A DNA stretch of 64,000 nt from Candidatus Bathyarchaeota archaeon (GCA_963775465.1 CAVZIW010000001.1:96001-160000); one strand, 5' to 3'. Counted from the first letter of the stretch, positions 13,775 through 60,943 are shown. The notes: generated by a model not told the origin, from the sequence alone. Program-made: numbers and translations.

Positions 13775-14713
13775 ATGGAACCTCAAATTTGCACTTGCTG
13801 CAAAACTCGTCGAGCTTTCTTTTTTCGACAGTACTCAGGGGAGCGGCTGTGCAAAAAATGCTTTACCCAATCCATCGAAGCCAAAGTTCGCGCAACAATT
13901 ACCCGTTACCATATGTTAAACTTTAATGATCATCTGGCGGTGGCGGTTTCAGGAGGCAAAGACAGCCTTAGCATACTTTACATTTTGGCGAAGCTTAGGA
14001 AGTTCCGACCTAAAACCACTCTAACGGCGGTCACTGTGGATGAAGGTATCAAAGGGTATCGTGACGAAGCTTTGGAAATTGCTTCCGCTTTATGTGAGAA
14101 GCTTGCGGTTCCTCAACATCTTGTTTCTTTTAAGGAATTGTACGGTTTTACGCTTGATGAAATGATAGCGCGAGTTCGTGAAAGGGGGCGAACTGAACTT
14201 ACTGCTTGCGCTTATTGCGGTGTACTGCGGCGGAGGGCTATAAACGCAGGTGCAAAGCAAGTTAAAGCTGACAAAATCGCAACTGGACACACCTTAGATG
14301 ATGAAGTTCAAACGGAGCTTATGAACATTTTTCATGGTGACATCGCACGCTTAGCCAAAGAGAAACCCGTCACAAGTGAAGTACATCCTTTATTCGTGCA
14401 GAAAATCAAGCCTTTTTGTGAAATTCCTGAAAAAGAAAGTGCTCTTTACGCTTATGTTAAAAAAATCGATTTCCAAGACACTCCTTGTCCTTATGCTTCG
14501 GAAGCGTTACGTAACGACATCCGAGGAATGCTCAACTGCATTGAAGCTAAACATGCGGGAACCAAGTTCACGGTTTTCAAAGCTATAGAGCGACTGCGTC
14601 CAGCCATCGAAGAAACTGTTAAAAAAGAAAGCTTTAAAACTTGCATGGAATGTGGTGAGCCTTCTGCTTTGGATATTTGTAAAACTTGTGAAATGCTTCG
14701 GCATGTGCGTTAA
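13775..14713 (+). CDS. tRNA 2-thiolation enzyme, TIGR00269 / NcsA-TtuA-Ctu1 family
   Basis: PP-loop AVSGGKDS, CAYCGVLRR, ATGHTLDDE, CPY, and N- and C-terminal CxxC Zn fingers. Confidence 0.92.
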   Translation: MEPQICTCCKTRRAFFFRQYSGERLCKKCFTQSIEAKVRATITRYHMLNFNDHLAVAVSGGKDSLSILYILAKLRKFRPKTTLTAVTVDEGIKGYRDEALEIASALCEKLAVPQHLVSFKELYGFTLDEMIARVRERGRTELTACAYCGVLRRRAINAGAKQVKADKIATGHTLDDEVQTELMNIFHGDIARLAKEKPVTSEVHPLFVQKIKPFCEIPEKESALYAYVKKIDFQDTPCPYASEALRNDIRGMLNCIEAKHAGTKFTVFKAIERLRPAIEETVKKESFKTCMECGEPSALDICKTCEMLRHVR

Positions 14714-14913
14714 CTTTTGACAAAGCCTTTTTCGCTTTTTAGTTTTTTGAGAATTTCTGACGCTTCTTTAGCTGTATTTGCAGATGCAACTTTTTGTGCA
14801 CGCAAAAGGGTCACATTTGCGCCGCAGTAAGGGCAAATTTTGGTCTTCTGTGCTTTTGCAGTAAGCATATAACCTCCGCATTTGGTGCATTTTACGATTA
14901 CTGTGGTGCCCAT
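14710..14913 (-). CDS. Small Zn-ribbon protein (DUF1922-like)
   Basis: CTKCG...KTKICPYCG; likely ATG at 14913. Confidence 0.75.
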   Translation of the reverse strand: MGTTVIVKCTKCGGYMLTAKAQKTKICPYCGANVTLLRAQKVASANTAKEASEILKKLKSEKGFVKS

Positions 14914-14987
14914 TTGTTGGTAGCTTCCGAAAACCTTTTTCACATACAAGCAGATAACAGTTTAGTAGGGATAAGAGAGCGAGCATC

Positions 14988-15347
14988 ATGAGAGATGAAG
15001 GTCAGGTAAAACCTAGAAATCGTTTAATCGAATTGGCAGTTAAGTACTTCAAAAAGGAAGGTTACAAATTAAATTATGAAAATGCCCAGTTAGAGGGTCA
15101 TAGCGGTATACTGCGTCATTTTGATTTGATTGTGCAGAAAGGGCGTTTTGAGCAGGGTGTCTGGGTTAGAGATTGGAATCGCACAATAGGTGTAAATGTC
15201 ATTATTAATTTGGATTCAGCCTCTGACGATGTGGGCATGTCAAGCCCAATAATGATAGGCGATAAATTCAGTGACCATGCAAAATCATATAGCAATCGCC
15301 GAAAAATCACGTTGTTAACTAAGCAAAAACTCGGAAGCTTACGTTAG
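14988..15347 (+). CDS. Mrr-like restriction-endonuclease-fold protein (degenerate active site)
   Basis: YF.KEGYK...LEGHSGI..HFDL.V...GKFS..AK.Y...RKI.L pattern of the Mrr_cat fold; the D-x-ExK motif is altered (VWVRD). Confidence 0.65.
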   Translation: MRDEGQVKPRNRLIELAVKYFKKEGYKLNYENAQLEGHSGILRHFDLIVQKGRFEQGVWVRDWNRTIGVNVIINLDSASDDVGMSSPIMIGDKFSDHAKSYSNRRKITLLTKQKLGSLR

Positions 15348-15350
15348 ACC

Positions 15351-15932
15351 TTAAGCTCTAAGGTACTGATCGGTTAATCCTTCTTTTTCTAGCATTCCAA
15401 GCCAATCTACAAATCCAATGCAACATTTCTTAGGGGCGCCCAAAACATCTAGTATTTCAGCTGTGACTTCATCCACAGTTTTTGAGGTGGCATCGATTTC
15501 GCATACTTTGCCTTGCTGGGTTTGAATGGCTTCAATTAGGCAGCTGTCAAGAATCTCAGCGGAGAGGTTTTCCCAAAGCTTGTTTTCTGTATACCCGCGG
15601 TTTTCCATGAAGATTTTAAGTTCTTTTGGGTTTCGCCGCAAAACAAACACGTTGCTGACAAGCTCGCTTGGAGTAACAGCTGGAGCGTAGTGTCCGTCAA
15701 TGATAATCGTCTGATTGGATGAATCTTGGATTGTTTTTTCCAGTTCTTGTCGCATAGCTTTTTCGTTAATTATCGTTGTTTGGCGTATTTTGTCTTCGTC
15801 AAGTGTTAAGTTACGGGTTTTTGCATAGTTCGTTAAGTTGATGTATTCCGCGTTGAGCTTGTCGGTTAGGATCTTTGCAATTGTGGTTTTTCCTACGCAT
15901 GGCGTGCCTGTTATGAGGATAACGTGTTTCAT
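15351..15932 (-). CDS. Archaeal adenylate kinase (AK6/Fap7/hCINAP family)
   Basis: P-loop ITGTPCVGKTT, IIDGH and RGY.E.K..EN..AEI. Confidence 0.92.
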   Translation of the reverse strand: MKHVILITGTPCVGKTTIAKILTDKLNAEYINLTNYAKTRNLTLDEDKIRQTTIINEKAMRQELEKTIQDSSNQTIIIDGHYAPAVTPSELVSNVFVLRRNPKELKIFMENRGYTENKLWENLSAEILDSCLIEAIQTQQGKVCEIDATSKTVDEVTAEILDVLGAPKKCCIGFVDWLGMLEKEGLTDQYLRA

Positions 15933-16089
15933 GGATTATGTTCTGTTGGGCGCTTAATTATTGGTTTTGGCTCTCAAAAAAGCATCAAAAAAGCTTAGCT
16001 CTATGGAGTTGTCTTCTATTTTGTTCGATCAAGGCAAAATTCCCACGTTTGGTGGTTATCTTTATTGGTTGGAACTGTGCAGTTTGAAT

Positions 16090-16402
16090 TGGGCTGGCGT
16101 GTTGGTGTGTGGCTTTCGGACCCCAAAGGGTCTGAGGAAACTCCGCCCACATGTAGAATTGCAGTGCCCTCAGGGTACAAGTCGAGAGGCTTGGCAACGG
16201 AGCAGAAACGAAACGTCCAACTGGATATGGCCATGACACATTTGTGATGTCGAGTCCGCCAGCTTGGAAACGATGAAACGGCCGTCCTGCAAGTGGAAAG
16301 GGCAAACAGCGCCGATGAAGTCTCTACCGGAAGGTGCAGGTAGCCCGATTAGCCGAATGCCACAAATAACAGAAGGCGGGTTACGGCCAATACACCAGCC
16401 CA
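16090..16402 (+). ncRNA. rnpB: RNase P RNA (archaeal)
   Basis: P1: GGGCTGGCGTGTTGGT pairs with GCCAATACACCAGCCC. P2: TGTGGC/GCCACA. P3: GGACCC/GGGTCT. CR-I GAGGAAACTCCGCC pairs with GGCGGGTT (P4). Conserved GCAGAAAC, TGAAACGGC, TTAGCCGAATG and AACAGAAGGCGGGTTA are present. Confidence 0.95.
16373..16401 (+). repeat. attL core (rnpB 3' end: P4 and P1 3' strands)
   Basis: AAGGCGGGTTACGGCCAATACACCAGCCC, repeated at 24931. Confidence 0.9.
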
Positions 16403-16471
16403 CGTATTCAACAGAAGATAGCTGAAATAACAAATAACAGCCCTTCTGTTATATACGCCAATTCTAATGCT

Positions 16472-17431
16472 TTGGAATATTGGAAAAAGGAATTAGCAAA
16501 TAGAGACAGCAAAACTGCTTTACGATATCTCCAATACTTCAAGGGTTTCGTGGAATACATGGGACTGACTCCAGACCAAATATTAGCACAGCGAGAGCTG
16601 GATTTAAGAAGTTTAAATAGAAAAGTACAGCGCAGATTTGAAAGTGAATTCAAAGCCTACTTAGCCAAGAAAAGGGATGAAGGATTCAAAATTGCCACCC
16701 AGCAAGTAATGTTTGCTGCAATTCGCTCATTTTTTGAAATTCACTATTGCCCTCTAATAATGAGGAAAGGAGACTATCCAAAAGGAGATAGTAACGGTGT
16801 AAAAAGAGCAACAAAAGAAGCTATACTCAAAATCTTAACAAATAAAACAAGAAATTCCTTCACTTCACACACTCTTATTTTATTCATCAAGGATACTGGA
16901 TTACGCATTAGCGACGTAGTTGCAATGAAATGTGGAGACATTCCCCATCAGATTGAGAAAGGAATTTGCCCCATACAAATTAACGTAATCACTGAGAAAA
17001 CTAACCTCTTAGCTAAGACTTTCATAGGAAAAGAAGCCATCGATGCACTCAAAACCTATCTCGAAATACGAAAAGTTGGAAGTAAATGGCATAAGGAAAT
17101 AATTCCTGAAAAAATAACGCCAAATAGCCCATTGTTTAGATCTTGGACTTGTGGCTTAGTTAAGCCTTTGAACCGAATAACCGCTTCGCATCTGATCCGA
17201 AACGCATTTCTCTACATTGAAGAGAAGAGGATGTCAGCTCACAGTTTGCGAAAGAAGCTTCAAACAGATTTGGAGAAAGCTGGAGTAAACTCTAACTGGA
17301 TAGACCAGATCTTAGGGCATCAACTCATAAACAGCCGAGACGCATACAGTTTACCGACTGATGAAGAGTTAAAAGATGCCTATACAATCGCATACCAATA
17401 CATCAATCTATTCAGATTCTACATTAACTAA
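16472..17431 (+). CDS. Tyrosine recombinase/integrase, catalytic portion int(C)
   Basis: Catalytic residues DTGLRISD (R), EKT (K), HSLRK (HxxR), ILGH (H) and DAY (Y). The frame is open upstream to 16370, through the att site. Confidence 0.93.
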   Translation: MEYWKKELANRDSKTALRYLQYFKGFVEYMGLTPDQILAQRELDLRSLNRKVQRRFESEFKAYLAKKRDEGFKIATQQVMFAAIRSFFEIHYCPLIMRKGDYPKGDSNGVKRATKEAILKILTNKTRNSFTSHTLILFIKDTGLRISDVVAMKCGDIPHQIEKGICPIQINVITEKTNLLAKTFIGKEAIDALKTYLEIRKVGSKWHKEIIPEKITPNSPLFRSWTCGLVKPLNRITASHLIRNAFLYIEEKRMSAHSLRKKLQTDLEKAGVNSNWIDQILGHQLINSRDAYSLPTDEELKDAYTIAYQYINLFRFYIN

Positions 17432-17609
17432 GGAAGGATCTAAACAAAAGACAAATGTTTCATACGAGTCGACAAAAGCAGACAACTGCGATTATTCAGT
17501 AGCAGAGGCAAGAAATATTATAGAAGTAAAAACACTATTGGCAAAAGGCTTCAAATATGAGATGGACTACGATGGCATTAAGCTATTTACAAAAAATAGG
17601 CACTTTTAA
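17406..17609 (+). pseudogene. Probable frameshifted C-terminal tail of the integrase
   Basis: An overlapping ORF in another frame ends YSVAEARNIIEVKTLLAKGFKYEMDYDGIKLFTK, resembling the short C-terminal domain of many archaeal integrases (recalled, not searched). It has no independent start signal. Confidence 0.55.
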
Positions 17610-17661
17610 TGTTTGAAAGTCTTTTATACTTAAAAAACTGAAAACCCATAGAGGTAATTTC

Positions 17662-18450
17662 GTGAATCGAAGTCCAATTCAAGAACATACTACTGCACTT
17701 GTAAAGAACCTGATTAATGAATCAAAATCACTAAAAAAATTGGATCAAACAACAGTTAATGGCCGTCTAAAAGAACTGTTTATCTCTAAACTATTGAGCA
17801 AGTTTCTAACTAGCCAATTCGGAATAGGAAGTGGAGTGATAATTAATCAAATAGGCAAAGCTAGCAAGCAAATTGACATCATAATATATGATAAGAGAAT
17901 ACTACCACCGTTTATTGTTGAGCAAAACATAGGCGTTTATCCGATTGAATCTGTTTTAGCTGCCATTGAGGTACGAAGTCACGTAGATAAGTCGACAATT
18001 AAAATGTATGCAGAAAAAGCAACAAAATTAACTGCTGAAATATATGATTCTGATTGGAGTTTATACAGAGACTACTCGAAATATTTACCGTTTTATTGCC
18101 TTGTAGGTTTTTGTGATAAAGAACCATTTAAAGGTAAGAATTTTGACGAGATCTGGAGTTGGATGGCAAACAATGCCAAACCGCTTTTCGGCGTTTGCAT
18201 TATAAATAAACTTTCTTGGTTAAAAGTCTGTGGCGTAAAAGGTGCATTACATTTAGTAGACGATAATAGCGAGGAGACGAAAGCATTTATAGCGATCTTG
18301 CTTGACAATATTCGTACTTCTTCTCAGCGGAGATACCTGCACCTTGCTTATCACATAGATTGGCTAGGAATTTACACTCGAGATCAAACGGGAATAAAGA
18401 ATATTTTTGAGCAAAGAGAGGTTTCAAGAAAAGCGCAAGGAAAATTCTAG
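17662..18450 (+). CDS. DUF6602-type PD-(D/E)XK nuclease-like protein
   Basis: G.LKE....LL..FL...FGIGSG.II...SKQIDIIIYD...P.ESVLAAIEVRS pattern; RBS GAGGT before the GTG. Confidence 0.75.
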   Translation: MNRSPIQEHTTALVKNLINESKSLKKLDQTTVNGRLKELFISKLLSKFLTSQFGIGSGVIINQIGKASKQIDIIIYDKRILPPFIVEQNIGVYPIESVLAAIEVRSHVDKSTIKMYAEKATKLTAEIYDSDWSLYRDYSKYLPFYCLVGFCDKEPFKGKNFDEIWSWMANNAKPLFGVCIINKLSWLKVCGVKGALHLVDDNSEETKAFIAILLDNIRTSSQRRYLHLAYHIDWLGIYTRDQTGIKNIFEQREVSRKAQGKF

Positions 18451-18798
18451 TAATTTGGCTACAACTTATTAATTCGTTCCAGTTTGCGCGGGTCGCTCCG
18501 CTTCCCCGCTTTCTTTCAAATGAAAAGAAAGACAAGAAAAGAAACGGTTGCAATTGCAAAACCTTCCTACACTTTAGACCTTCGTCAACGAACCAAAAAA
18601 CTATGCGCATCAATCACATATCGTTCTCTTAATAGAAAAAAGAGTTATCTAAAGTAAAAACTAAAATATCAATAATTTTAAATAATGTTGAATTGAATTC
18701 ATTTGGATTTAAGAATAGATATTTCGATAAATTTTATTTGATGCAAAATTTCTTATACAACTTACGTCTAGAATTTATAGTTAGCGAGGTATGTTGCA

Positions 18799-19908
18799 AT
18801 GGTAAATAGAGAATCTTTTTCACGTGCTAAAAAGAGTGCTAGTGAACATTACAATGCGGCTCTTGGTGCTATACTTCTTTTGGTAGTTGCGGTTACTCTC
18901 TTGATAGGTTTGCCTTCGTTTATTGATCCAGAATCAGCTGTGGGTCTGACTGTTACGGTTGTTTGTGGAGTAACGGCGCTGTTGGCCACTTTGGTTCTTA
19001 CTACTTTTATTTTAAGTTGCTTAGGCTTATCGAATAGGGATGAGGCACTTGGATTGCCAACGGGTAGCGTGCGAGCGATTATTGCTTTGAGTCTAATTCT
19101 AATCTTTTCTATCCTGAGTATTTTTATGTTTCAATATATGGATGATCCCGTGGTTACAACAACAATTAATACTGTCACAACTAATAATTCTACAATTGGT
19201 CAAGAAATAATCACAAACCAGACAGATGTAATCAAGGGGACTTCACAAGCTGTAGTTGACTTTTCTAAGCAAACGTTAACAACTGTTGGAACCTTGGTTG
19301 TTGCTATTGCGGCTTTCTATTTTGGAACAAGATCTGTTCAGGTTGCTCAAGGTTCGACAGAAAAAACTGAATTATTCATTGATCCTTCAGGAACAAAAGA
19401 ATTAGTAATAGATTCTGATAATAAACTAACACCACTTACCATTTTAATAAAGCCTACTCCAGATGACGCGGCAGTTAGTTACAAAGTAGTTGACGATGAG
19501 TATAAATCGCTACAGCGTGAGAGTTCAAACAGGTATATTTATACCCCCACTACTGCAGAGGCGAAAGATGTTACTTTAACTTTCGAAATGCCAGCTTACT
19601 CTGATGTCGCGGCTAAAGAGCTCAAAGTGAAAATTGTCAAACCTGAGCTATCTATCGAACCTTCTACAGACAAGGAAATAACAAAAGGTGCCAGTATATC
19701 TTTTGAAGCTAAACCTTCGCCTAAAGACACGGATGTTGAATGCACTTTGGCTGGCGATGATAAAGGCTCAGTGAAGCAAGATCCTAAGAACAAATTTACC
19801 TATACATCTGCAATTGACGAAGGCAAAGAGGCTACTTTAACTTTCAAAATGTCTAAGTACCCCAATGTCGCGGCTAAAGAGCTCAAAGTGAAAATTGTCA
19901 AAAAGTAG
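18799..19908 (+). CDS. Multi-pass membrane protein with two C-terminal beta-rich (Ig-like) repeats
   Basis: About four hydrophobic helices, LGLPTGSVRAIIAL and AIAAFYFG, then two ~88-aa repeats each ending VAAKELKVKIVK. Confidence 0.75.
   Translation: MVNRESFSRAKKSASEHYNAALGAILLLVVAVTLLIGLPSFIDPESAVGLTVTVVCGVTALLATLVLTTFILSCLGLSNRDEALGLPTGSVRAIIALSLILIFSILSIFMFQYMDDPVVTTTINTVTTNNSTIGQEIITNQTDVIKGTSQAVVDFSKQTLTTVGTLVVAIAAFYFGTRSVQVAQGSTEKTELFIDPSGTKELVIDSDNKLTPLTILIKPTPDDAAVSYKVVDDEYKSLQRESSNRYIYTPTTAEAKDVTLTFEMPAYSDVAAKELKVKIVKPELSIEPSTDKEITKGASISFEAKPSPKDTDVECTLAGDDKGSVKQDPKNKFTYTSAIDEGKEATLTFKMSKYPNVAAKELKVKIVKK
19604..19902 (+). repeat. 38-bp perfect intragenic direct repeat
   Basis: ATGTCGCGGCTAAAGAGCTCAAAGTGAAAATTGTCAAA at 19604-19641 and 19865-19902. 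Confidence 0.9.
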
Positions 19909-20057
19909 GTTGCAGAGGTAATATTAATTGACAAGCTAACTCCATCCTTTTTTTATTATCATTTCTTAATTTTCTTTAAAGAGGTTATAGACTCAGCAAA
20001 TATTTACTTATACTTCTTTTTAGCAAAGAACCTTGCAAAGAACCTATCAAATCGCAG

Positions 20058-20327
20058 CTATTCGAAGTCATTCTCAGCTCTGAATTTCTCCCATATATCC
20101 AGCATATCTACAAAACCGTAGAATAAACTAGGCAAAGTTCTAGGCGCATAAGCACCTAAAGAATCGAATGACAAAACAACATTGAAAAACAGATAATGGC
20201 TATTAAAACGATAGTAGATTGAAATGCTGTTAGTCAATCTTAATTTGTGGTATCCTTTGGAATGAGCGGGAGTCACCCAATCTCTGTCATCAACCAAGCT
20301 ATCGCTTTCGACGTTATCCAAAATCAT
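20058..20327 (-). CDS. Hypothetical protein coupled to the rep 3' end
   Basis: ATG 20327 lies within the last codons of rep and is preceded by GAGGGG. Confidence 0.5.
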   Translation of the reverse strand: MILDNVESDSLVDDRDWVTPAHSKGYHKLRLTNSISIYYRFNSHYLFFNVVLSFDSLGAYAPRTLPSLFYGFVDMLDIWEKFRAENDFE

Positions 20328-21374
20328 GTTTTCCCCTCTCGACCCAAACGTCTCCTTGCCCCTCATTTATGTCACAAAATTCGCTTCTCTGATAGTCAAC
20401 GCTGTCTTTGCTGTAGATGAAACATCGATTGCCGAGATAGCGTAAGGGAACCAATTTTTTTTGACAAATAGGACAAAGCTCTTTGCGTTTTTGAATGGTG
20501 ACTTTTAGTTTGCGGTAGCTGCACGTTCCAAACCAAGTTGCAACGTGGAAGCGGACAACATTGCGTTTAACAGAAGCATGGTTCAGTTGATACCAAGCCG
20601 TTCCCATGATGGTTTTACGTTCATCTTTGACCTTTACGATATAACCATCTTTTTCAAACAATCGCCGAGTTCTTGCTTCAAATCCGTTACAACCCGCGCA
20701 AGTGATTATGCTTTTAGCGTTGAATTTCGGGCAATGGCGACATTGTCCGTAACCATTTAGGATAAAGCCAATACAGTGAAAGTGAGGACTCCAGTACCAG
20801 CCCTTCATGTTGCGGATTCCGTTATTGTAAACATCGTGGGCACGATATCTGAAACCATGAAAGATTAGTACACCACCGATAACGCCTCTCGATTTCAGGA
20901 TTTTTGAAGCTTTTAATCGTAATTGCTCAAAATCTAATCCATAATCAGTTTTGGGAATACTTACAATGATGTGTTCGGCAACACCAGAAGTCTTGGAAGC
21001 CTCACATATTCGCTGAGTTATTCTATCTGCTTCACGAACAGCCCAACCAGACTTAAACAGACTGGGCAAGTCGGTTTGTCACAGCTAGCATGAACCTTTC
21101 GAACAAACACCTTACCTTTATAGTTCATTCTGTCTAGCGTTGTCTTATTGTGTAATTCGGTATGAAGGCAACCCTTGAAACTGACAAATCGACCGCAGTT
21201 TGAGTTAGTTAGTTTTCCATGACCTACGAGTTCGAAATCGCCATAGACACCCCACTTCTGAAAACTCTCATCGTCGAGAGATTTCTCGAACTCTTGATAA
21301 GCCTTTTCTTCTTCGGATTTAACAAACAATGTTTTTTCATTTTTTCTCTTGCTAATATAATGAGGAAAACACAT
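20314..21374 (-). pseudogene. HUH-superfamily rolling-circle replication initiator (Zn-finger type), split by a 1-nt frameshift at ~21056
   Basis: Joined product: C..C.H and CDKPTCPVC Zn ligands, then (F)KSGWAVREA, motif I HIIVSIP, GGVLIFHGFR, motif II SPHFHCIG, motif III TAWYQLNH, WFG.CSY and CPIC. Adding one T (TGTTTAAG to TGTTTTAAG, minus strand) fuses ORFs 21018-21374 and 20314-21069. Confidence 0.8.
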
Positions 21375-21416
21375 AAATGGTAAAGTAAATTTGCCAGTAA
21401 AGGAGATTGAGTACTT

Positions 21417-21974
21417 GTGGAGAAATTTAAGGATGAATATTGTGAAAAAATTTTCGTAGTAATTTCAAACAATGATAACGAAGTTAGATTCAACGAATTA
21501 CACCGACAACTAGCCAAATATGGTGCAAAAATGTCAAAACCGACTTTGATTCAACATTTAAATCACCTTTTAGAAAAAGGAATTGTTCTACGCAAGGAAA
21601 CCGACAAACAAAATGTAACCTATGGAATAGATTGGAAAGAATACATTGAGGCGCAAAGAGTCAAGAAGTCTATGGAAAAAATGTCTAAGAGTAAAGAGAA
21701 TTTCAAGTTGGAAAGCATAAATAATCAAGTTATTTACGCCTGTGGTATGTTAACTTTGGGCGAGTTCTATTTTACTAAATTTGCTATTCTTGACCTTATT
21801 GAACCAGAAAAAAAGCTACAGCACTATATCTCTTATCAACTGATTCGAAGGATTTCTAGTATTTACTTTTCATGGCTTTTAGATACCTGCAAAGGTTCCC
21901 AAGAAAACAGTCAAAAAGCACTAAAATACATAGACAAACGCATCAAAGAAATTCACAAAGCTCTTTCAGGATAG
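21417..21974 (+). CDS. Winged-helix transcription regulator divergent from rep
   Basis: N-terminal wHTH VRFNELHRQL...MSKPTLIQHLNHLLEKGIVLR...VTY. Confidence 0.8.
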   Translation: MEKFKDEYCEKIFVVISNNDNEVRFNELHRQLAKYGAKMSKPTLIQHLNHLLEKGIVLRKETDKQNVTYGIDWKEYIEAQRVKKSMEKMSKSKENFKLESINNQVIYACGMLTLGEFYFTKFAILDLIEPEKKLQHYISYQLIRRISSIYFSWLLDTCKGSQENSQKALKYIDKRIKEIHKALSG

Positions 21975-22174
21975 TAAACATAAAAAACATACTTGGTAGA
22001 ATAAGGGAGTAACATCGCTAACGGCTCCCTCTTCTTCAGCCATGGCGTATTTGCCCTTTAAAAATAGACCGCTTTTTTATAAAAAGCTAAGCAAAAATGA
22101 ATTACTCTATGTTTGCACAAGAGTAATCAGAAAGCCTTGTTTTTTGGCACCCCAAGACCCAAAAAACCGCCAAT

Positions 22175-22357
22175 TTAACAGCTAATATGATGTTGCCCTT
22201 TTAGCAATCCTCTATGCCTTGCAGAACAACGCCTGCATCTTTTTTGACCCGTTGGAATTTTCCGCCATTCAGGAGTCTTGGCGCGTGCCTTAAGCTTCCC
22301 ATTACAGTCACAACAGTGATATTTTACTGGTCTATCCCTAATTCCAAAAATCTGCAA
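22175..22357 (-). CDS. Small putative Zn-finger protein or remnant
   Basis: CCDC...CRRC in a basic 60-aa ORF inside the element. Confidence 0.4.
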   Translation of the reverse strand: MQIFGIRDRPVKYHCCDCNGKLKARAKTPEWRKIPTGQKRCRRCSARHRGLLKGQHHISC

Positions 22358-22428
22358 GAATTAATCACTTTAAAACTAATCTTTCTGCTTTTAACTCTGT
22401 CTTATCAGTCTCATATTAATGTTTATGA

Positions 22429-22501
22429 AGCAAGACACCTCGCCTAGCGGATGACCCCATCCTAAAGGATACCTCCCCGCAGGCAAGGGCTCTGTCTTGC
22501 T
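22429..22501. repeat. Nested GC-rich stem-loop, partly repeated at 26001-26049 (candidate origin or ncRNA)
   Basis: Outer arms AGCAAGACA/TGTCTTGCT, middle arms CCTCGCCTAGCGG/CCGCAGGCAAGG, inner hairpin ATCC-TAAA-GGAT. Confidence 0.7.
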
Positions 22502-22719
22502 AAATAAACAAATAAACGAAAAAGAGAAGTATCGGTTTCTTATTATTTGATTAGCTCTTATTGATCTGATTTTGGAGTTGAGAGTGAGTTCCTAAATATT
22601 ATATTGTAGAAAAAACAGTTCAACAATACATTGAACAATTGCGGGGCTGTGTGCTAAAGGAAGGTAGTTACTGTTGGCGGCAATGTCCCCTAAATATTTG
22701 GATAAAAAATTAGTGAGTA

Positions 22720-23064
22720 TTGATGCTTTTGAAAATGAATTCAGCCGTGGAAAAGAGCTACACTCTTATTATTAGAGTGGTTAATTTTAAAGAAAACAAA
22801 CCAATTGAAAATGTTAACGTGACAGTTTTCAGATTAGAACAGGAATCAATAACTCTTAATCAGTGGACTGAAAATCTCAAAAATGGAACTCCATTTAAAA
22901 GGTTGATTTTTTCGATGAATACCGATAATAATGGCATGGTGACCGCTGAGGTTTCAGAAGGTATTTATGAAGCTAAAATCGAAAAATATGGTTTAACTAA
23001 AATTTGTGAGATAACGCAAAACGATGAAATTGTTTTTGTTGAACCAAAAAAGCATTGGTGGTGA
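22720..23064 (+). CDS. Small beta-sandwich protein (carboxypeptidase-regulatory-like)
   Basis: KPIENVNVTV...TDNNG.V...EG.YE.KIEKYG pattern. Confidence 0.6.
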   Translation: MMLLKMNSAVEKSYTLIIRVVNFKENKPIENVNVTVFRLEQESITLNQWTENLKNGTPFKRLIFSMNTDNNGMVTAEVSEGIYEAKIEKYGLTKICEITQNDEIVFVEPKKHWW

Positions 23065-23129
23065 TAGTGAAGAGTGCGCCCGCACTGAATTGCATATTTA
23101 GAAGAAATTCATTAAGAAATCAGAAACAG

Positions 23130-23348
23130 CTATTGTTTGAAAATTACCAGATATTTTCTTTCTATATCTTCTACTATGGTTAATCCATGCTTTTTCGCAT
23201 GAGCTTCTATTCCTGATTTGTTATAATCGCACTTTATTTGAATCTGATAATGGCTAGGAACTCTTTCACATATGTTTACGTATGACGGTTCAACTAAATC
23301 TTTTGACACTAATTCTTTTAGAATAGCCATGGCTTGCTCTCTATTCAA
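23130..23348 (-). CDS. Small hypothetical protein
   Basis: 72-aa ORF with TTG start and protein-like composition. Confidence 0.55.
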   Translation of the reverse strand: MNREQAMAILKELVSKDLVEPSYVNICERVPSHYQIQIKCDYNKSGIEAHAKKHGLTIVEDIERKYLVIFKQ

Positions 23349-23783
23349 ATCTAAATACCCACAAAGAATTTAGTTATTTCAAGTAGGCTAAATATTTTTC
23401 CATAGAGAAAGCATAGACAGAACTATCAAAAAATGACCTAATATGTTACTTTAAAGCCTGTTTCGCAGTTCTTACACGTATACTGTTCAACGCGGAAAAC
23501 ATTGCAACTTAGAAATTTGTCAGGGTTGGAAACGTTTTTTCCGCAATTAGGACATTTAGCCACATGCAGCCCTCGAGCATAAACTAGTACTTTTGAAAAA
23601 AGACTTAAGAAGATTTGTGATTACATCAAGGTACAATAGCCATTCCAAAGTTTTCCATAAACACGCGCTAAAAAACAAGTAGTCCTATCAGTAAAGGAAC
23701 CTTGGCTAAAGCAAGTCAGCATTACGCGAAAAGGAATAGACAAGATAACATATATATTTAGAACAAATCAAAATAGTTGTTGA

Positions 23784-24080
23784 GTGAATTATATGATAAA
23801 TTTTGAAGAAATTATGGGGTTACAGGTGGTAACTTCGGAGGCAAATATTATTGGAGTAGTAGAAGGCGCAAAAGTTGACACCGCAACTTGGATGATAAAG
23901 TTTTTGAACGTGAAACTTACTGGTGAGGCTGCCGATAATCTCGGAAAGAAGAAGAGATTCAGAAGTACCAAAATATGCATTCCAGTTGGCATGGTTCAAG
24001 CAGTTGGGAATATAGTAACCATCTCAAGGTCGATAGAAGAGTTGGAAAGCTCTCAGGAAATTACAGAATGCACAAAATAA
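23784..24080 (+). CDS. PRC-barrel domain protein
   Basis: IMGLQVVTSEANIIGVVEG..VDT.TW.I..L.V...IP...V.AVGNIVTI. Confidence 0.85.
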   Translation: MNYMINFEEIMGLQVVTSEANIIGVVEGAKVDTATWMIKFLNVKLTGEAADNLGKKKRFRSTKICIPVGMVQAVGNIVTISRSIEELESSQEITECTK

Positions 24081-24233
24081 AATGAACTAAGATCTTAAGC
24101 ACTGAGACAAGATAGTCTCATATTAGAAACTAAGAGCTTGCTTCAGAATAACCCAACATCTTTGGGGTTTTCTCGCAAATGAGGACTTTGAATTGCCGAC
24201 ACAATTTACCTGCTATGTGTAAGAGAGTTGATT

Positions 24234-24734
24234 TTAGAGAATGTGCATAGTGATGAGAACATGAAATATTATCACCAAGAAAAACACCATGACCAAGCTG
24301 GCGTGAATAAACTTGTTAGTTTTATGGTCAATTTGCTTTATTAACGGGAATCTCTCAGCGAAACCTGATATTACTTCTAATGTCATGGAAATGTAAATAG
24401 CTAAACCCGTTCCTAAAGACGGATAGAAGAATATGGATCTTCCTAGTTGACCCGAAAAATGAATTGAGACTAAAGAGAAGAATAGAAGATTACCGAATAT
24501 GTGGTACCTAAGAAGGCCTTTGTACTTTTGAGGATAATAACGCTTTAAAACTACGAATGCTGGGGTACTGATGGCGATGTAACTTGTTCCAATTATGGCA
24601 AGCCAGTGACTGAAACGAAGAGGACCAACAAAGAAGCTTACGTTAATCCAATGTAGGAAGGCTGCGACCATGAGCAAGGCTGTTACTATGATAAATAGTA
24701 ACGCCAGCAGAAATTCTGAGTTTTTAAAGTCCAA
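24234..24734 (-). CDS. Membrane protein with conserved His residues (cytochrome b561 / ferric-reductase-TM-like)
   Basis: About five TM helices with His at FSHW, RYHIFG, SIHF, FIHA and IFHV; paralog at 29835-30365. Confidence 0.65.
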   Translation of the reverse strand: MDFKNSEFLLALLFIIVTALLMVAAFLHWINVSFFVGPLRFSHWLAIIGTSYIAISTPAFVVLKRYYPQKYKGLLRYHIFGNLLFFSLVSIHFSGQLGRSIFFYPSLGTGLAIYISMTLEVISGFAERFPLIKQIDHKTNKFIHASLVMVFFLVIIFHVLITMHIL

Positions 24735-24859
24735 TAAAAATCCTCTTCCTTAAAGTATTGATAACTAAATATAAGAATTACTTAAGGCAGCTTAACTTCA
24801 AATTCTCCTTTCGATGGACTCTAATAAATAGATGACGCGCACTAAAGGAAAACTAAAAG

Positions 24860-24866
24860 TTTATAA
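24860..24866 (+). promoter_or_regulatory. TATA box upstream of the putative int(N) fragment
   Basis: AAAAGTTTATAA with a purine-rich BRE-like flank, ~35 nt upstream of ATG 24899. Confidence 0.5.
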
Positions 24867-24898
24867 CTAGATAGCGACATAAAGACACAGAGATCAAC

Positions 24899-25057
24899 AT
24901 GAGCGATAATAGAAGAAAATTACTAAGCCCAAGGCGGGTTACGTCCAATACACCAGCCCGCATATACAACAGAAGGTATCTGAAGTAACAAAAGACAGCC
25001 CTTCTGTTATACATGCCAATTCTTAATCTTTGAAATATTGGAAAAAGGAATTAGCAA
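24899..25057 (+). pseudogene. int(N) fragment (MSDNRRKLLSP...) running into attR, followed by the dead 5' part of a second, older integrase
   Basis: 24931-25057 is 112/127 nt identical to 16373-16499 and translates KAGYVQYTSPHIQQKVSEVTKDSPSVIHANS*..LKYWKKELA versus KAGYGQYTSPRIQQKIAEITNNSPSVIYANSNALEYWKKELA. Confidence 0.75.
24931..24959 (+). repeat. attR core of element 1 (also left junction of element 2)
   Basis: AAGGCGGGTTACGTCCAATACACCAGCCC, one mismatch to the rnpB 3' end. Confidence 0.9.
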
Positions 25058-25125
25058 GTAGTGATGATAATCTCCAAAGGTTTACTTCTCTCCTGCTCGC
25101 GCTTATCGCCTGTTTAAATATCTGC

Positions 25126-25440
25126 TTATGGATTAAAATTTACAGTGTCAATTCTGTGATGTTCCACTTCAGGTTGCCTTTCAAAAAAAGGAGTAACTTT
25201 GTCCATTGTGGAAGAAAATAACTCTTCTGATTCTAAAAATGACTCGTTGTCTTCCCACATCGTTATAATTAAAGCAACGTCGTCATTGTCACATGAAAAT
25301 GATGATACATAACCTCGATACCCCTTTGCGCTTCGTACAAGTTTGTTTAAGATAAGGTCTAACTCAGCAAAGCCTTCTTCGCGTTTTCCAGATTTAAAGA
25401 AAAACTTTGCTATTCTTGCGACAACCAATTCATACACCAA
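25126..25440 (-). CDS. ABM-family (antibiotic biosynthesis monooxygenase-like) dimeric alpha-beta barrel protein
   Basis: ARI..F..K.GK.EE...AKGYRG...A.IITMWE..E pattern. Confidence 0.75.
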   Translation of the reverse strand: MVYELVVARIAKFFFKSGKREEGFAELDLILNKLVRSAKGYRGYVSSFSCDNDDVALIITMWEDNESFLESEELFSSTMDKVTPFFERQPEVEHHRIDTVNFNP

Positions 25441-25625
25441 GATTAGATTATTTTTTTATAGATTTAACTTTTTGCAAATCTTTAACTTCGATAAGTCTGA
25501 GGGTTCCACCCTCTTTTGTCGCCAAACATTTTGAGTACCATCCAATGATTAAAATTTGACGAAAAATAGATCTACATCTCTTATAGCGTTGCCACTTACC
25601 TATTCTTCTCAAAACTTGTAAAGCA

Positions 25626-25856
25626 CTATGTTTTAAATGACCTAAAGTTTCGGTATCCCTTTTTTTCCATTTCAGCTAAGAAACCTTCACTCTCAGATTC
25701 GGGCAAAAGAGGACAAATGCTAAACTGTACTTTACCATTTTGATGTTGCTCTTCAGTGGTTTCATCAAAAACACATCTTTTATTTCCTTCAATTAGAAGA
25801 ATACACTTAGCATTATTATCGAAGTTACAGCATATTTTACGACCAAATTTGCCCAA
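25626..25856 (-). CDS. Small Cys-containing hypothetical protein
   Basis: 76-aa ORF with five Cys and RBS-like GAAGGTGG before the TTG. Confidence 0.5.
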   Translation of the reverse strand: MGKFGRKICCNFDNNAKCILLIEGNKRCVFDETTEEQHQNGKVQFSICPLLPESESEGFLAEMEKKGYRNFRSFKT

Positions 25857-26000
25857 AATTCCACCTTCATAGTTCTGAATGATATAGAGCCTTGGAGTAA
25901 AAATATTATACGCTAATCTTTCGCGTCGCTCCCGCTCCGCTTTTTGCCTTGCGCTTTTAAATACAGGCTAAACGGTTAAAGCGACTCGGTTGTGGTGGCA

Positions 26001-26049
26001 GATGACCCTCCCTAAAGGATACCCTCCCCGCAAGCAAGGGTTTTGTCTT
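26001..26049. repeat. Second copy of the 22450-22498 motif
   Basis: GATGACCCTCCCTAAAGGATACCCTCCCCGCAAGCAAGGGTTTTGTCTT versus GATGACCCCATCCTAAAGGATACCTCCCCGCAGGCAAGGGCTCTGTCTT. Confidence 0.85.
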
Positions 26050-26064
26050 ACAACATCATATTGG

Positions 26065-26984
26065 CTAAAGAAATTCGGCATTTTTCGGTTCAATTTGTAT
26101 TGTCGTATGTTCGATACCAAATTTATCGTTTAATAACTTGTTTATTCTTTGGATAATTTCACTCACATCTTCGCTACTATGTATAGTCGCTTCTATATGT
26201 GCGGTTAAGGAATACATTCCAGAAGTTATTTCCCATATATGCATGTCATTAATTGCCGATTTACTTCAGGGATATTTTTCTTAATTTCCTCTGTAACAAC
26301 ATTTGCGTTAATTCCTTTAGGGGAAGTCTCCATTAGAACATTAATGGAGTCTTGCATTAATCCGAAAGCCCAAATAAAGATTAGCACTGAAATCCCAATG
26401 CCCAATAATGGGTCAATTATATACCAACCAGTTAAAGAAACAACGATTGCGCCAATTATGATAAACACAGAGGAGGCTGTATCAGCAAACATGTGAAGAA
26501 ACGCACCTTTAACATTTAGGTCGTTCTTAATGCTTTTTCGCAGAATTAGTATGCTAAATCCATTTGCAGCCAATCCCGCCAAAGCAACGAGAAACATTTC
26601 AAAGCCTAAAACAGGCTGAGGATTTAGTAACCGTTCTATCCCCTGAAAAAATATGTATGCAGTTACCCCGAAGAGGAAAATGCTGTTAAATAAAGCTGCC
26701 AAAATTTCTGCTCTGTAATACCCGAATGTTCGATGATGACATGGTTCTCTGCAGGAAATCATGATCGCTGCAAAACTGATTATCAGGGCAAATAAATGGG
26801 TAAACATGTGACTTGCATCGCTGATTAACGCTAAGCTACCAGATAGTATACTTCCAACAACTTCGATTACCATAACCGACGCTGTAACAACCATAGAAAG
26901 AATTAATCGATTCTTAGTAACGTTCTTATACTCATGAATATCGGACAAAGTATCCATTTTCGGTCTATGATTGTGTTTCATCAA
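26065..26984 (-). pseudogene. CDF-family (CzcD/ZitB) metal efflux transporter, frameshifted at ~26260
   Basis: SLALISDASHM, TFGYYRAEILAA and AFLHMFAD. The C-terminal domain (INDMHIWEITSG..LTAHI...KFGIEHTTIQIE) continues in another frame to the stop at 26065. Confidence 0.85.
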
Positions 26985-27122
26985 TCTGCTCTCAGGGTAA
27001 AAAGGTAATTCTTACTTTTTAACCATAACATCATTAAATGTATTTCCAAGAGTTGTAAAGATAGATCGCTGAATTAGATAGCCAAAATGGAAAAAATGCC
27101 TGTTGAGAATTTTTCTTTCGTC

Positions 27123-27677
27123 TTAAAGCAAATGTTCTATCAAGATGCGAATCCCTATTACTATAAGGATGACACCTCCGAGTATCTCAATTTTCTGGCC
27201 AAAAAGTTTGCCTAAACCGCTACCAAAGATGAACCCCACAAATGAAAGTAGAAAGGTCACTGCACCGATAAGGGCGATTGGTAGCGCAATAGAGATTTCT
27301 AAAAAAGCAAAACTAAAACCAACCATTAAAGCGTCAATACTAGTAGCAACTGCTAAAACAAACACTGAAGATAATTTAATACTATCTTCTTTTTTATTGT
27401 CTCCATTTTTTAAAGATTCATAAATCATTTTTACACCGATAAAACCCAGTAACCCAAACGCTATCCAATGATCGATGCCGACTATAACATCTTTAAAACT
27501 TAATCCTGCAACCCACCCGATAACCGGCATTATCATTTGGAAGCCGCCAAACAATGAAGCTAATAATATAGCTGATTTGCGTCTATCCTTTTTGAAAGTT
27601 ATTCCCTTTGCTATTGAAGCAGCGAAAGCATCCATTGCTAAGCCTAAGGCAATCAGGAATATAGTAAGTATATCCAC
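27123..27677 (-). CDS. mntP: Manganese efflux pump MntP family
   Basis: IALGLAMDAFA, FQMIMP, DHWIAF, ATSIDAL and EILGG.IL. Confidence 0.92.
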   Translation of the reverse strand: MDILTIFLIALGLAMDAFAASIAKGITFKKDRRKSAILLASLFGGFQMIMPVIGWVAGLSFKDVIVGIDHWIAFGLLGFIGVKMIYESLKNGDNKKEDSIKLSSVFVLAVATSIDALMVGFSFAFLEISIALPIALIGAVTFLLSFVGFIFGSGLGKLFGQKIEILGGVILIVIGIRILIEHLL

Positions 27678-28259
27678 TTATTTCACCTAGCAAAGTTGAT
27701 ACAAAAACTAATTTCGGGAATATAGGTTTTATACGTATTTGCTAGATTTCTAAAAATACAACAGAATTCCTAAAGGTCAATCTAGACGTTGATGAAAAGG
27801 AATCAAGTATAAAATGTAGGAATAATGAGAAGGTGCTAAATCTAAAAACGGGTACGACCAACGCACTAAGCTGTGATGATATCACAAGGGGACATGTTGT
27901 AGTGTTTTAACACCAACAACAGTTTAAAGGGTTGATAGAACTTTATTTTGTAATGCGGATTTCGCCGTTTAGTCCTCATGCTAAAACATTCGCCATCTTT
28001 CCTCAAAGACAGCTTATTTTTTGCTTGGATAAACGACGAGTTCCGTTCACGTTTTCAAATTAGTAACTCTCAAAAGAAAGTAGGGAAAAGGGTCGATACT
28101 TAGAACGTCGGCCTTATTGATAATTTGATCAAATTAGATGGAACTGAAAGCAGTCAAAACTCAAGTTCTTGTTTGTATAAGTGAAACACGGGTTAAGGGG
28201 ACTTTCTTTGACTGAATCTTAATTAGACGATACAACTATTATGTACTTGAGGGATTTTT

Positions 28260-29100
28260 TTGGCGACACCTCAAAAGGAAACAAAAAGAATGTTGCCTGG
28301 CGTTGTCGATATTGCTTATGAGCAGTATAAACGTGATTTACAAAGTTATCAGATGGCAAAGGAAATAATGAGTCAGAATGTTGCTACTACAGTTCCAGAA
28401 GCTTCGCTCAAAGACGTTTCTCGAATTATGGGTGAGAAACATATTGGAAGCCTAATCGTAATGAAATATAAAACGCCCGTTGGAATAGTTACTGAACGCG
28501 ACTTACTCAGCAAGGTCCTAGCGTATGGTGAGTTTATAGGAGACGAAAAAGTTGAAGATGTGATGTCATATCCGCTATTTTCAGTTTCTTCTACAACTAA
28601 AATAAAAGAAGTTGCTCAGCTTATGATTAGTAGAAAGGGTAGACTTGCAGTATTTGATGCTGGAACTCTACGTGGGTATTGTGGCCGCTTCAGACCTAAT
28701 CAAAAGTCTGCCTGATGTTGCTGAAACTGAAGTTAAAGTTGATGACTTCATGACCAAAAATGTCATTACTGCCGACGAAGAAGCATTCGTTATCAACATA
28801 GCTAAAATTATGGGTAAACAACGTGTAGGCAGCATCATTATTACACGTGACGATGAGCCATTTGGGATTTTTACTGAACGGGACCTGCTAACGAATTTCT
28901 TGGCCACAGGCAAGTCAATGTATACAGAGTTAGGGCCAGTATGTTCACATCCTTTAATCGTTATTCCCATTGGTGAAAGCGTACATAGAGCGGCAGCCGC
29001 TATGGCACTCAAACACATTAGACGATTGCCTGTAGTTAGAGATGGCAAGTTGATAGGTATTATAACTGCACGCGATCTCGTCGAGGCTTATGCAAAATAA
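28260..29100 (+). pseudogene. Four-CBS-domain protein split by a 1-nt insertion at ~28671
   Basis: Removing the C in CTA-C-GTG joins ...DAGTL to VGIVAASDL. Two CBS pairs (GIVTERDLL, GIFTERDLL, GIITARDL). Confidence 0.8.
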
Positions 29101-29316
29101 TTTTCCTCCTTTTTTGTTTTTGCACTCAATTTTGGTAAATCATCTCAAACAAGTAACCTGCCCAAAACTCTAACTCAGACACGAAGGTGCATCCTACATG
29201 AATAAAGATGTGTCTTCAACGTTGGAATATTGAAAAAATGTAGTAGCAAACAAAATCGAAATCAATTAGAAACGACTTTGGTGATTCGCTTCCGCTCAGC
29301 CTCACAAATTTTATGT

Positions 29317-29706
29317 TCACTCTTTTTTAGATATAAAATAAAGTGCAAACATGTGGTTCTGATATGTCACGGGAACCACAATGACATTAGCATCAAATAC
29401 CTGCCCTGAAGTAGTCTTTAGCTTAACATCCATTGAAGAACCAATCATTTTCTCAGTAGCGTTAAAATATGCTGAAACCACCGCGTCCTGACTCTTCTTG
29501 TCAACGTTTTCTTCCAAAGGATTTTTTATTTTAGCCCAATCCTCAGGCGAAGTATAGCCTAAAAGTGAAGCAAACTTGTTATTGCAAACCTTGTGGTTAT
29601 CATCTAAATAAAGATAAATTGCCTGCTCTGACATGTCAAAAATTAGCTTTAACTGATTATGAAATCCGCTAACAAGCTCTTCATGATGTTTTTGTTCAGA
29701 ACTCAT
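29317..29706 (-). CDS. Stand-alone PAS-domain protein
   Basis: IFD.SEQAIY...CN.KFASLLGY.SPE; RBS GGTGAGG before ATG 29706. Confidence 0.7.
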   Translation of the reverse strand: MSSEQKHHEELVSGFHNQLKLIFDMSEQAIYLYLDDNHKVCNNKFASLLGYTSPEDWAKIKNPLEENVDKKSQDAVVSAYFNATEKMIGSSMDVKLKTTSGQVFDANVIVVPVTYQNHMFALYFISKKE

Positions 29707-29834
29707 ATCCTCACCGATGTTCATGTTTATCTAAAGGTCAGCTCTTAAATGATTGTGGTTGGCAATCAGTAACCACAACCTCTTTCGCGGTCGATCTGCT
29801 TTTATTTTCGACTTCAGATAATAAGAGCCCTCTT

Positions 29835-58226: not shown

Positions 58227-58304
58227 TGGTGGGCCGGGCCGGATTCGGACCGGCGACCTTCTGCACGTCAAGCAGATGTCCTAACCAGGCTAGACGACCG
58301 GCCC
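58227..58304 (-). tRNA. tRNA-Val(GAC), CCA encoded
   Basis: Acceptor GGGCCGG/CCGGCCC-A-CCA; anticodon arm TCTGC-TTGACGT-GCAGA; T arm GCCGG-TCCGAAT-CCGGC. Confidence 0.93.
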
Positions 58305-60927: not shown

Positions 60928-60943
60928 CTCTTCGAAAATTCCT

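Follow-up and report, generated by a model that had tools for sequence, protein, structure and literature searches.

A probable integrative element that uses the 3′ end of the gene for RNase P RNA as its attachment site in Bathyarchaeia

Results

Organization of the locus

We analysed a window of 64,000 nucleotides (nt), that is, the whole stretch of DNA considered here, from a metagenome-assembled genome (MAG) of a Candidatus Bathyarchaeota archaeon (GCA_963775465.1 CAVZIW010000001.1:96001-160000). Within it, a complete RNase P RNA gene, rnpB, is followed by a tyrosine integrase gene and, further downstream, by a displaced copy of its own 3′ end. The evidence presented below indicates that region 16402-24930 is very probably an 8.5-kb integrative, plasmid-like element in a Bathyarchaeia chromosome, with the 3′ end of rnpB as its attachment (att) site. 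Its ends and its integrase are defined by the following features:

16091..16401, + strand: rnpB, complete, the target gene (Rfam RF00373, with P1 extended by complementarity)
16373..16401, + strand: attL core, the last 29 nt of rnpB, with the 3′ strands of P4 (16375-16382) and P1 (16387-16401) (repeat search; same start in distal copies of relatives)
16402..16471, + strand: left arm of the element, from the core to the integrase gene, with AACAGAAG at 16421-16428 and an inverted copy, CTTCTGTT (sequence reading)
16472..17431, + strand: tyrosine integrase with intact catalytic part and TTG start (PF00589)
17376..17609, + strand: open reading frame (ORF) in another frame with the C-terminal domain that is fused to the integrase in relatives (tblastn to the 3′ ends of relatives' integrase genes)
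24915..24930, + strand: conserved right terminus, GAAAATTACTAAGCCC, directly next to the core (AATTACT motif plus 6-8 nt)
24931..24959, + strand: attR core, a displaced repeat of the 3′ end of rnpB that carries T at 24944 (repeat search; bridged by contigs X3 record 19 and X4 record 23)

The first-pass annotation of this DNA, made from the sequence alone, had recognized a complete archaeal rnpB. An Rfam scan confirms this: RF00373 matches 16097-16395 on the + strand along the whole model (positions 1-288 of 288) and scores 193.1 bits, compared to a gathering score of 84. Direct complementarity extends P1 to 14 of 15 standard pairs (16091-16105 with 16387-16401), so that the RNase P RNA spans about 16091-16401. 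The gene is present in one copy in the 2.4-Mb, 15-contig assembly of this genome. Its last 29 nt (16373-16401) recur as a direct repeat at 24931-24959, at a start-to-start distance of 8558 nt and with a single mismatch (G16386 vs T24944), and none of 100 shuffles gave two matches to the repeat. The 29-nt core, which had been noted before, is therefore real; its similarity, however, continues to 134 nt at 87% identity (16373-16506 vs 24931-25064), taking in core, spacer and the first 12 integrase codons, and an integrase stub of an older element follows attR. The left edge of the repeat at 16373 is sharp. Beyond the two known copies no third att copy was detected in the window, neither as an ungapped match to the core at up to 11 mismatches nor as one to its 18-nt right half at up to 4 mismatches. 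Neither boundary carries a transfer RNA (tRNA) or transfer-messenger RNA (tmRNA) gene, the tRNAs of the window lying at 58227-58304 and 60843-60928, and a tRNA/tmRNA-gene island according to the Islander definition was rejected on these grounds.

The repeat had also been described as covering the 3′ strands of the P4 and P1 helices, and both the complementarity to 16139-16147 and 16091-16105 and the Rfam alignment agree with this. GGCGGGUU (16375-16382) is complementary to 16139-16147 around a bulged U, and we read it as the probable 3′ strand of P4, on the basis of this complementarity, the Rfam alignment and textbook architecture, the pseudoknot being unpaired in the Rfam model. G16386 falls in an unpaired column of the Rfam alignment. 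The P1 5′ strand, rich in G and U, hardly varies; by way of G-U or U-G wobbles it forms pairs with each of the observed 3′ variants (A/G and T/C at core positions 18-19).

A tyrosine integrase right after rnpB, another of the earlier claims, is likewise borne out: the gene starts after a 70-nt spacer and matches PF00589 (E 2e-16; 60.7 bits against a cut-off of 27.1) as well as the PHROG annotated as integrase (E 7e-21). R145, K176, H257, R260, H283 and Y292 are shared by all 11 homologues aligned and, judging from the conserved boxes, probably represent the catalytic residues. The C-terminal domain of about 35 amino acids is out of frame in the window copy, which appears to be a frameshift, and the integrase of the nearest relatives (L140 and L141, 85% identity) is a single 371-amino-acid ORF. 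An identity as chromosomal XerA was rejected (NF040815, 76.1 bits against a cut-off of 220), as was an SSV-type (class I) integrase, since the core ends 70 nt upstream of the start codon and thus outside the gene. The pNOB8-type R...YxxR...Y signature, as given in PMC8371274, is absent, the corresponding box being HSLR (H257, R260).

Linkage of the integrase to rnpB in other genomes

Related integrase loci occur in Candidatus Bathyarchaeia or Bathyarchaeota MAGs, several of them labelled Bathy-6 or MCG-6, from peat, soil and sediment. When we scanned 120 genomes of the genus with the integrase (E<=1e-20), 20 gave a match, the window's own genome included. A full rnpB adjoins the integrase in 11 of the other 19 (G058, G095, G048, G049, G111, G008, G068, G010, G118, G101 and G073). 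G106 and G121 carry an integrase stub 3.2 and 13.8 kb downstream of rnpB, respectively, on the same contig and strand, while the integrase adjoins a 19-64-nt 3′ fragment of rnpB in G013, G098, G071 and G075, with rnpB on another contig. No rnpB sequence was found beside the integrase of G046, and a distant, 28%-identical integrase in G042 adjoins tRNA-Arg. Moreover, all of the 24 integrase loci in named genome records belong to Bathyarchaeia, and at 13 of them a full rnpB ends 53-115 nt before the integrase on the same strand. A class-wide scan of 401 genomes revealed rnpB directly upstream of the integrase in two genomes of a sister genus (G262 and G290). Furthermore, in a genome of another family with a GC-rich rnpB (G376), 49 nt of the genome's own rnpB end are repeated exactly at a distance of 78 nt from the start of the integrase. 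This copy is inverted and accompanied by two shorter ones nearby (L135, G376:C42, 5352-5390, 6070-6089, 7602-7626), and the rnpB of this genome lies on another contig.

Metagenomes contributed 80 integrase loci, which were scored with an nhmmer profile of 33 rnpB sequences and by eye. Directly upstream of the integrase, a full rnpB is present at 21 loci, an rnpB cut by the contig start at 15, a partial one at 1 and a 3′ fragment only at 6. The loci that lack rnpB comprise about 20 with a conserved TTTATATAAGGGGGCTTTTGG-like motif and 2 with distant integrases; about 15 contigs begin within the integrase gene, so that linkage cannot be judged there. The same architecture is seen in more than 40 independent assemblies, and rnpB is full-length in all occupied loci scored. 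Linkage of integrase homologues to an rnpB with a duplicated 3′ end had been proposed as a check, and it holds in many independent assemblies with the same start nucleotide. In a tree of 79 distinct integrases (quick IQ-TREE search), 42 of the 45 rnpB-linked rows fall into a 57-row group with an SH-aLRT support of 93, and the rnpB label requires 4 changes on the tree compared to a mean of 25.7 after shuffling. Integrases of less than about 33% identity lie outside this group, the exception named being L116 (G459, 31%), in the outgroup clade.

Several observations concern loci with other surroundings. The TTTATATAAGGGGGCTTTTGG-like motif stands about 65 nt upstream of the integrase start at L153, L156, L159, L167, L176-L179, L181, L182 and L185, and also at L186, L188, L190, L193-L195, L200, L202 and L110; at L179, a 13-nt part of it recurs 2.5 and 10.4 kb downstream, and an Rfam scan at the motif found no RNA gene. 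For the target of TATAAGGGGGCT-type integrases, a pattern search of the window's genome gave one 2-mismatch match, compared to one for a control pattern, and repeat searches at seven loci gave only 11-14-nt repeats. Two genomes have more than one full-length rnpB match, G118 three (C10, C12, C1) and G023 two (C4, C13), which could reflect strain mixture, contamination or assembly duplication at a repeat-prone locus. Longer decayed rnpB 3′ fragments, each with an element, were found away from the intact gene at L093 (G013:C1; 64 nt, on a different contig from rnpB) and L100 (G002; 57 nt, 0.7 kb downstream), which suggests either that displaced fragments are used secondarily as landing sites or that the arrays have been rearranged.

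Fixed boundaries and reciprocal base differences

The distal copies of the rnpB end start at positions 282-286 of the 312-nt query, which correspond to 16371-16375 in the window. Their distance from rnpB is 1.4 to 11 kb in G095, G003 (with two copies), G048, G021, G058, G111, G073, G008, G013 and G098, and 4.0 to 8.5 kb in 9 metagenome loci. Immediately to the left of nearly every distal core we found AATTACT plus 6-8 nt, and to the right of most proximal cores a flank containing ACAGAAG. The genes between these ends differ from one element to another, the integrase and the HUH-like gene described below being the only recurrent ones.

Comparison of 25 proximal/distal pairs showed that the two cores differ at positions 12, 13 and 14 in 7, 11 and 10 pairs, at position 22 in 7, and at positions 26-29 in 8, 6, 6 and 9 pairs, respectively; positions 1-11, 15-21 and 23-25 each differ in at most 4 pairs. 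In five loci the distal copy has GT at positions 13-14, where rnpB has two host-specific bases (GG in the window, AG in G095 and G098, AA in G073 and G048). Six pairs show C in the proximal and T in the distal copy at position 29. Integrase-free rnpB genes in G012 and G106 end in CAGCCT followed by ATTTTACTAA, and that of G014 ends in CAGCTC before the same flank. From these reciprocal differences, the exchange maps between core positions 15 and 28, i.e. 16387-16400 in the window. The markers match what conservative recombination would predict, with attL composed of host-left and element-right sequence and attR of element-left and host-right sequence. Since the markers are reciprocal and the distal copies carry GT, T24944 is the element's own base and not a product of relaxed selection; a T at this position is also found in the distal copies of four other loci whose rnpB has a different base. 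The mismatch had been taken to break a P1 wobble pair only in the distal copy and thus to be consistent with selection on the rnpB copy. This explanation does not hold, as G16386 falls in an unpaired column and the T is an element-type base.

Unoccupied sites and related populations

Within 1.5-kb flanks, 14 of 18 rnpB loci of the genus have no integrase or stub, and upstream synteny is kept in most. The unoccupied rnpB genes of G012, G014 and G106 are followed by a distinct native flank. A search for empty sites in relatives, as suggested by the first-pass annotation, yielded cross-species comparisons with the integrase-free G014: the DNA behind attR in L158 can be aligned with the sequence that directly follows rnpB in G014 (offsets 37 vs 26), and in G073 the genes behind attR show collinearity with G014 genes located about 1.1 kb beyond rnpB. 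G002 and G003 had been considered as an empty-site pair, which was withdrawn in view of further att copies downstream in G002; the 0.64-kb flank that they share may be an old remnant.

Contigs from four metagenome runs (Logan; word shares up to 0.27) were compared with positions 14000-30000 of the window. In these contigs the right module of the element (22459-24700) is 98.5-100% identical, compared to 91-95% for the chromosomal flank (14000-16000) and for the stub behind attR (24947-25975). In X1 and X4 the contigs cease to resemble the window exactly at 16402, and attR is bridged by contigs of X3 and X4.

Genes carried by the element

The interior of the element contains the following features:

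17662..18450, + strand: PD-(D/E)xK nuclease, NucC-like (DUF6602, E 1.7e-22; PADLOC PD_DExK, E 6.6e-31, and NucC, E 5.7e-17)
18799..19908, + strand: predicted membrane protein with two C-terminal repeats (ORF translation; internal repeat 19528-19641 / 19789-19902)
20058..20366, - strand: small conserved ORF downstream of the Rep-like gene (52-56% identical ORF adjoining the Rep-like gene in L098 and L089)
20314..21374, - strand: HUH-like putative rolling-circle Rep in two frames, 20314-21069 and 21018-21374 (relatives' ORF, invariant residues, fold matches)
21417..21974, + strand: winged-helix regulator candidate (weak Pfam helix-turn-helix match, E ~1e-3, below cut-offs; PADLOC Csa3 winged helix-turn-helix region, E 6.4e-6)
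22447..24734, no strand given: right-hand cargo module (ORFs and identity of the right module across metagenome contigs)
22720-23064 (+ strand) and 23130-23348 (- strand): ORFs of the right module
23784-24080, + strand: PRC-barrel protein of the right module
24234-24734, - strand: membrane-protein-like ORF of the right module, without a family match

Cargo genes are thus indeed enclosed by the repeats, for example those for the NucC-like nuclease and the PRC-barrel protein. The nuclease (17662-18450), together with the weakly Csa3-like winged-helix protein (21417-21974), may constitute defence cargo. A regulator had been claimed for the element as well, and the winged-helix candidate offers for this only weak matches, with a Pfam helix-turn-helix E-value of ~1e-3 that is below the cut-offs. 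The protein encoded at 18799-19908 has no match in Pfam, PHROG, PADLOC or NCBIfam.

The earlier designation of a Rep gene stands in part: an HUH-like conserved gene is present, but it is split in this copy and matches no recognized Rep family. In the relatives L098, L086 and L101 it is a single ORF of 330-380 amino acids, and it is conserved in the elements of five relatives. An alignment of homologues shows invariant H174, H176 and Y238 and several invariant Cys clusters. Rep_1 occurs in 28-84% of the members of its ESM Atlas neighbours, and its AlphaFold model has a mean pLDDT of 83. Fold comparison with BFVD gave 13 matches at E<=1e-3 (lowest 2.4e-7), mostly unnamed, and of the 50 matches listed only one is named, a Rep ORF2/G2P protein that ranks 49th. 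A full-length relative gave no match in Pfam (including PF01446), PHROG, NCBIfam or PADLOC; a PDB sequence profile search returned nothing relevant, PDB Foldseek gave no match below E 0.06, and an alignment-based scan of IMG/VR found no relatives. None of 737 database homologues of the family has a Pfam domain. We therefore treat the identity as a rolling-circle Rep as a lead rather than a finding, and the family as a candidate new HUH Rep family of Bathyarchaeia elements. Its members (e.g. L098:1981-2970) share an invariant HxH, a Tyr and three Cys clusters, and most of them are on short metagenome contigs.

An older element stub behind attR

The DNA that follows attR contains:

24960..26082, + strand: stub of an older related element, consisting of the leader and initial 12 codons of an integrase gene (to 25064), an ABM-like ORF and short repeats (repeat comparison)
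25126-25440, - strand: ABM-like ORF within the stub (homologue inside the G010 element, 87.5% identity)

Two further short repeats, at 25998-26056 and 26061-26082, are common to the element and the stub. The 59-nt repeat 22447-22505 / 25998-26056 has no further copy in the genome, and it is a point at which contigs from metagenomes break or switch. The repeated integrase leader, the homologue of the ABM-like ORF and the shared repeats indicate that the DNA after attR is the stub of an earlier element and not native chromosome. The site is therefore a tandem accretion site that has been used repeatedly.

Discussion

Our comparative analysis supports the proposal that the 3′ end of rnpB serves as attB and that the gene is rebuilt on integration, based on the recurrent linkage, the duplicated ends and the full-length rnpB at occupied loci. 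According to the model that we favour, the attP core would copy the rnpB 3′ end and would be flanked by conserved element arms. Strand exchange would take place in CCAAYACACCAGCC (16387-16400) within the 3′ strand of P1; the host would keep its P4 strand, and the element would supply the distal part of the P1 3′ strand and a new downstream flank. In this way rnpB would stay whole, with the displaced 29-nt copy marking the far end, and the gene of the lambda-style tyrosine integrase would remain intact on integration. We infer the exact overlap region, the recombination reaction itself and replication by the HUH-like protein from comparison of sequences. Moreover, we are inclined to think, though with considerable reserve, that the Bathyarchaeia integrase clade has rnpB as its ancestral attachment site, in at least two host families.

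Several results weigh against an rnpB-specific element that is mobile. No same-species empty site was found, and attR of the window is followed by an older stub. A circle junction had been predicted, and neither a 16401->24960 nor a 24930->16402 joint was seen in the assembled contigs of the four runs, which drop rare forms. Of the 80 metagenome contigs, 0 had the overlapping ends of a circular form, and scans of IMG/VR with the integrase and Rep alignments gave no relatives. In this copy, neither the C-terminal part of the integrase nor the complete Rep-like gene is in frame. As for linkage, integrase and rnpB lie on different contigs in five genomes (G013, G098, G071, G075 and G046), the integrase tree comes from a quick search only, and a nested 14-row clade (support 94; 13 rows with the other motif and 1 without) has no rnpB.

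These points bear above all on whether this copy still moves, and it may be inactive or decaying. A fixed, decaying relic of an rnpB-targeting element, no longer mobile, is a serious alternative to which we give somewhat less than an even chance. The displaced reading frame of the integrase C-terminal domain, compared to the 371-amino-acid ORF of the nearest relatives, and the split Rep-like gene, a single ORF in relatives, would both fit decay, as would the lack of excision joints in contigs of the four runs. Integrase stubs or integrase-less att-bounded segments are moreover common at the site (G021, G019, G106, G121 and G003). However, a CBS-domain gene at 28260-29100 also shows two overlapping frames, with a 1-nt frameshift at 28671, and is one ORF in G013; the base at 28671 is lacking in all four metagenome assemblies. 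Assembly indels are therefore a plausible cause of the frameshifts near 17400 in the integrase gene and near 21040 in the Rep-like gene, too. Furthermore, the catalytic domain is intact through Y292, the att cores differ at only 1 of 29 nt, and the right module is nearly identical across populations, which all argue against a relic.

An integrative, plasmid-like element is also preferred over the provirus of a small archaeal virus, which we regard as unlikely. A size of 8.5 kb, a membrane protein with repeat domains and fold matches of the Rep-like protein to predicted viral proteins would be compatible with a provirus, but no capsid, packaging ATPase or other virion family was matched in Pfam, PHROGs or NCBIfam, and searches of IMG/VR for the integrase and the Rep-like protein found no relatives. 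The content between att sites also varies widely, with only the integrase and the Rep-like gene recurring. It is very improbable that a resident, vertically inherited recombinase gene neighbours rnpB by chance and that the 29-nt repeat is a local duplication. Linkage is mainly confined to one genus and its family, as such a gene would have it, but only 20 of 120 genus genomes have the integrase, and 14 of 18 rnpB loci lack an integrase or stub within 1.5 kb despite upstream synteny. Segment length and content vary at a fixed boundary, the base markers are reciprocal, and the element is more conserved than its flanks. Finally, that the repeat and its junctions are an assembly artefact is next to excluded: the MAG is in 15 contigs with probable indel errors, but independent contigs bridge attR (X3 record 19 and X4 record 23), the metagenome contig L141 has rnpB followed by the 85%-identical integrase, and more than 40 independent assemblies share the architecture.

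Archaeal integration sites are described as mostly tRNA genes, with a minority of protein-coding genes and intergenic DNA (PMC8371274). The section of this article on non-tRNA sites lists intergenic and protein-coding sites only, and a text search for "RNase P RNA" gave 0 occurrences in it. The rnpB element resembles the islands at tRNA and tmRNA 3′ ends, as portrayed there, in that the integrase adjoins the target, attP copies the 3′ end of a structured RNA and the gene is rebuilt, with a displaced 3′ fragment at the far end and with tandem arrays and decayed stubs (PMC8371274). It differs from them in its target, the ~310-nt catalytic RNA of RNase P, which is single-copy per genome and essential, and in its core, which corresponds to the 3′ strands of P4 and P1 and not to an anticodon or T-arm. 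With class II (pNOB8/lambda-paradigm) integrases it shares an att core outside the gene, here 70 nt upstream, and an unsplit gene (PMC8371274). The box here, however, is HxxR (AHSLRK), compared to YxxR in pNOB8 and KxxR in SSV according to the same source, a comparison at the level of signatures.

A further close parallel is the phage phiEf11, which integrates in ffs, the 4.5S/signal recognition particle (SRP) RNA gene of Enterococcus faecalis, reported in 2025 as a novel site; the RNA-gene sites that this report names as known are tRNA, tmRNA and csRNA genes (PMC12540744). Both systems use a non-tRNA housekeeping RNA gene as attB, with a core of 27-29 nt that lies ~70 nt from the integrase. 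phiEf11 is a tailed phage of a bacterial host whose site was confirmed by PCR (PMC12540744), whereas the rnpB element belongs to an archaeal host, is small and without virion genes, uses another RNA gene and is documented by comparative evidence only.

The first-pass annotation named no described rnpB-targeting family in archaea, and our check of the open-access literature also found none. Searches of open-access full texts gave no report of rnpB as an attachment site, and the mentions of rnpB or RNase P RNA alongside integrases that they returned concern phylogenetic markers, RNA inventories and reference lists only; supplementary tables of island and provirus surveys may list islands next to rnpB. 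We therefore consider the novelty of rnpB as a target provisional. The element itself represents a real case of classical site-specific integration with a new target and is not categorically new.

Bathyarchaeia are uncultured, and their mobilome is poorly known. If our reading is true, many of these archaea owe the P1 3′ strand of an essential ribozyme to mobile DNA, the rnpB locus is an accretion hotspot for cargo such as the NucC-like nuclease, and rnpB would be the first ribozyme gene described as an archaeal attB. It may be the tolerance in pairing of the P1 5′ strand that allows an essential ribozyme gene present in one copy to be used as a landing pad. Targeting of rnpB would extend the rule of a stable structured-RNA gene whose 3′ end is restored by the element to a large, single-copy, essential ribozyme. 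The duplicated rnpB 3′ end offers a simple marker for mobile elements of Bathyarchaeia, and rnpB islands would presumably be classed as intergenic by island finders whose annotation is limited to tRNA and tmRNA genes. Moreover, the natural attP/attB pairs and their integrases could become genetic tools for Bathyarchaeia, and the system should clearly interest specialists who work on RNase P and on the mobile elements of archaea.

Flanking genes and minor observations

Upstream of rnpB, 14988-15932 encodes a protein with an Mrr-like restriction endonuclease domain and also contains an AAA_18 kinase-like gene. Synteny of this flank extends to most relatives of the genus, and it looks ordinary. 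At ~29150-29250 there is a weak gapped pair of att-like and integrase-start-like sequences, which possibly occurs by chance. Related populations vary across the cation-efflux/MntP segment (25976-28071), and some lack 29134-29832, with 39 nt in its place in contigs X2 and X4. The dapB gene lies about 130 nt from the last att copy in G106 and 6 kb beyond attR in the window.

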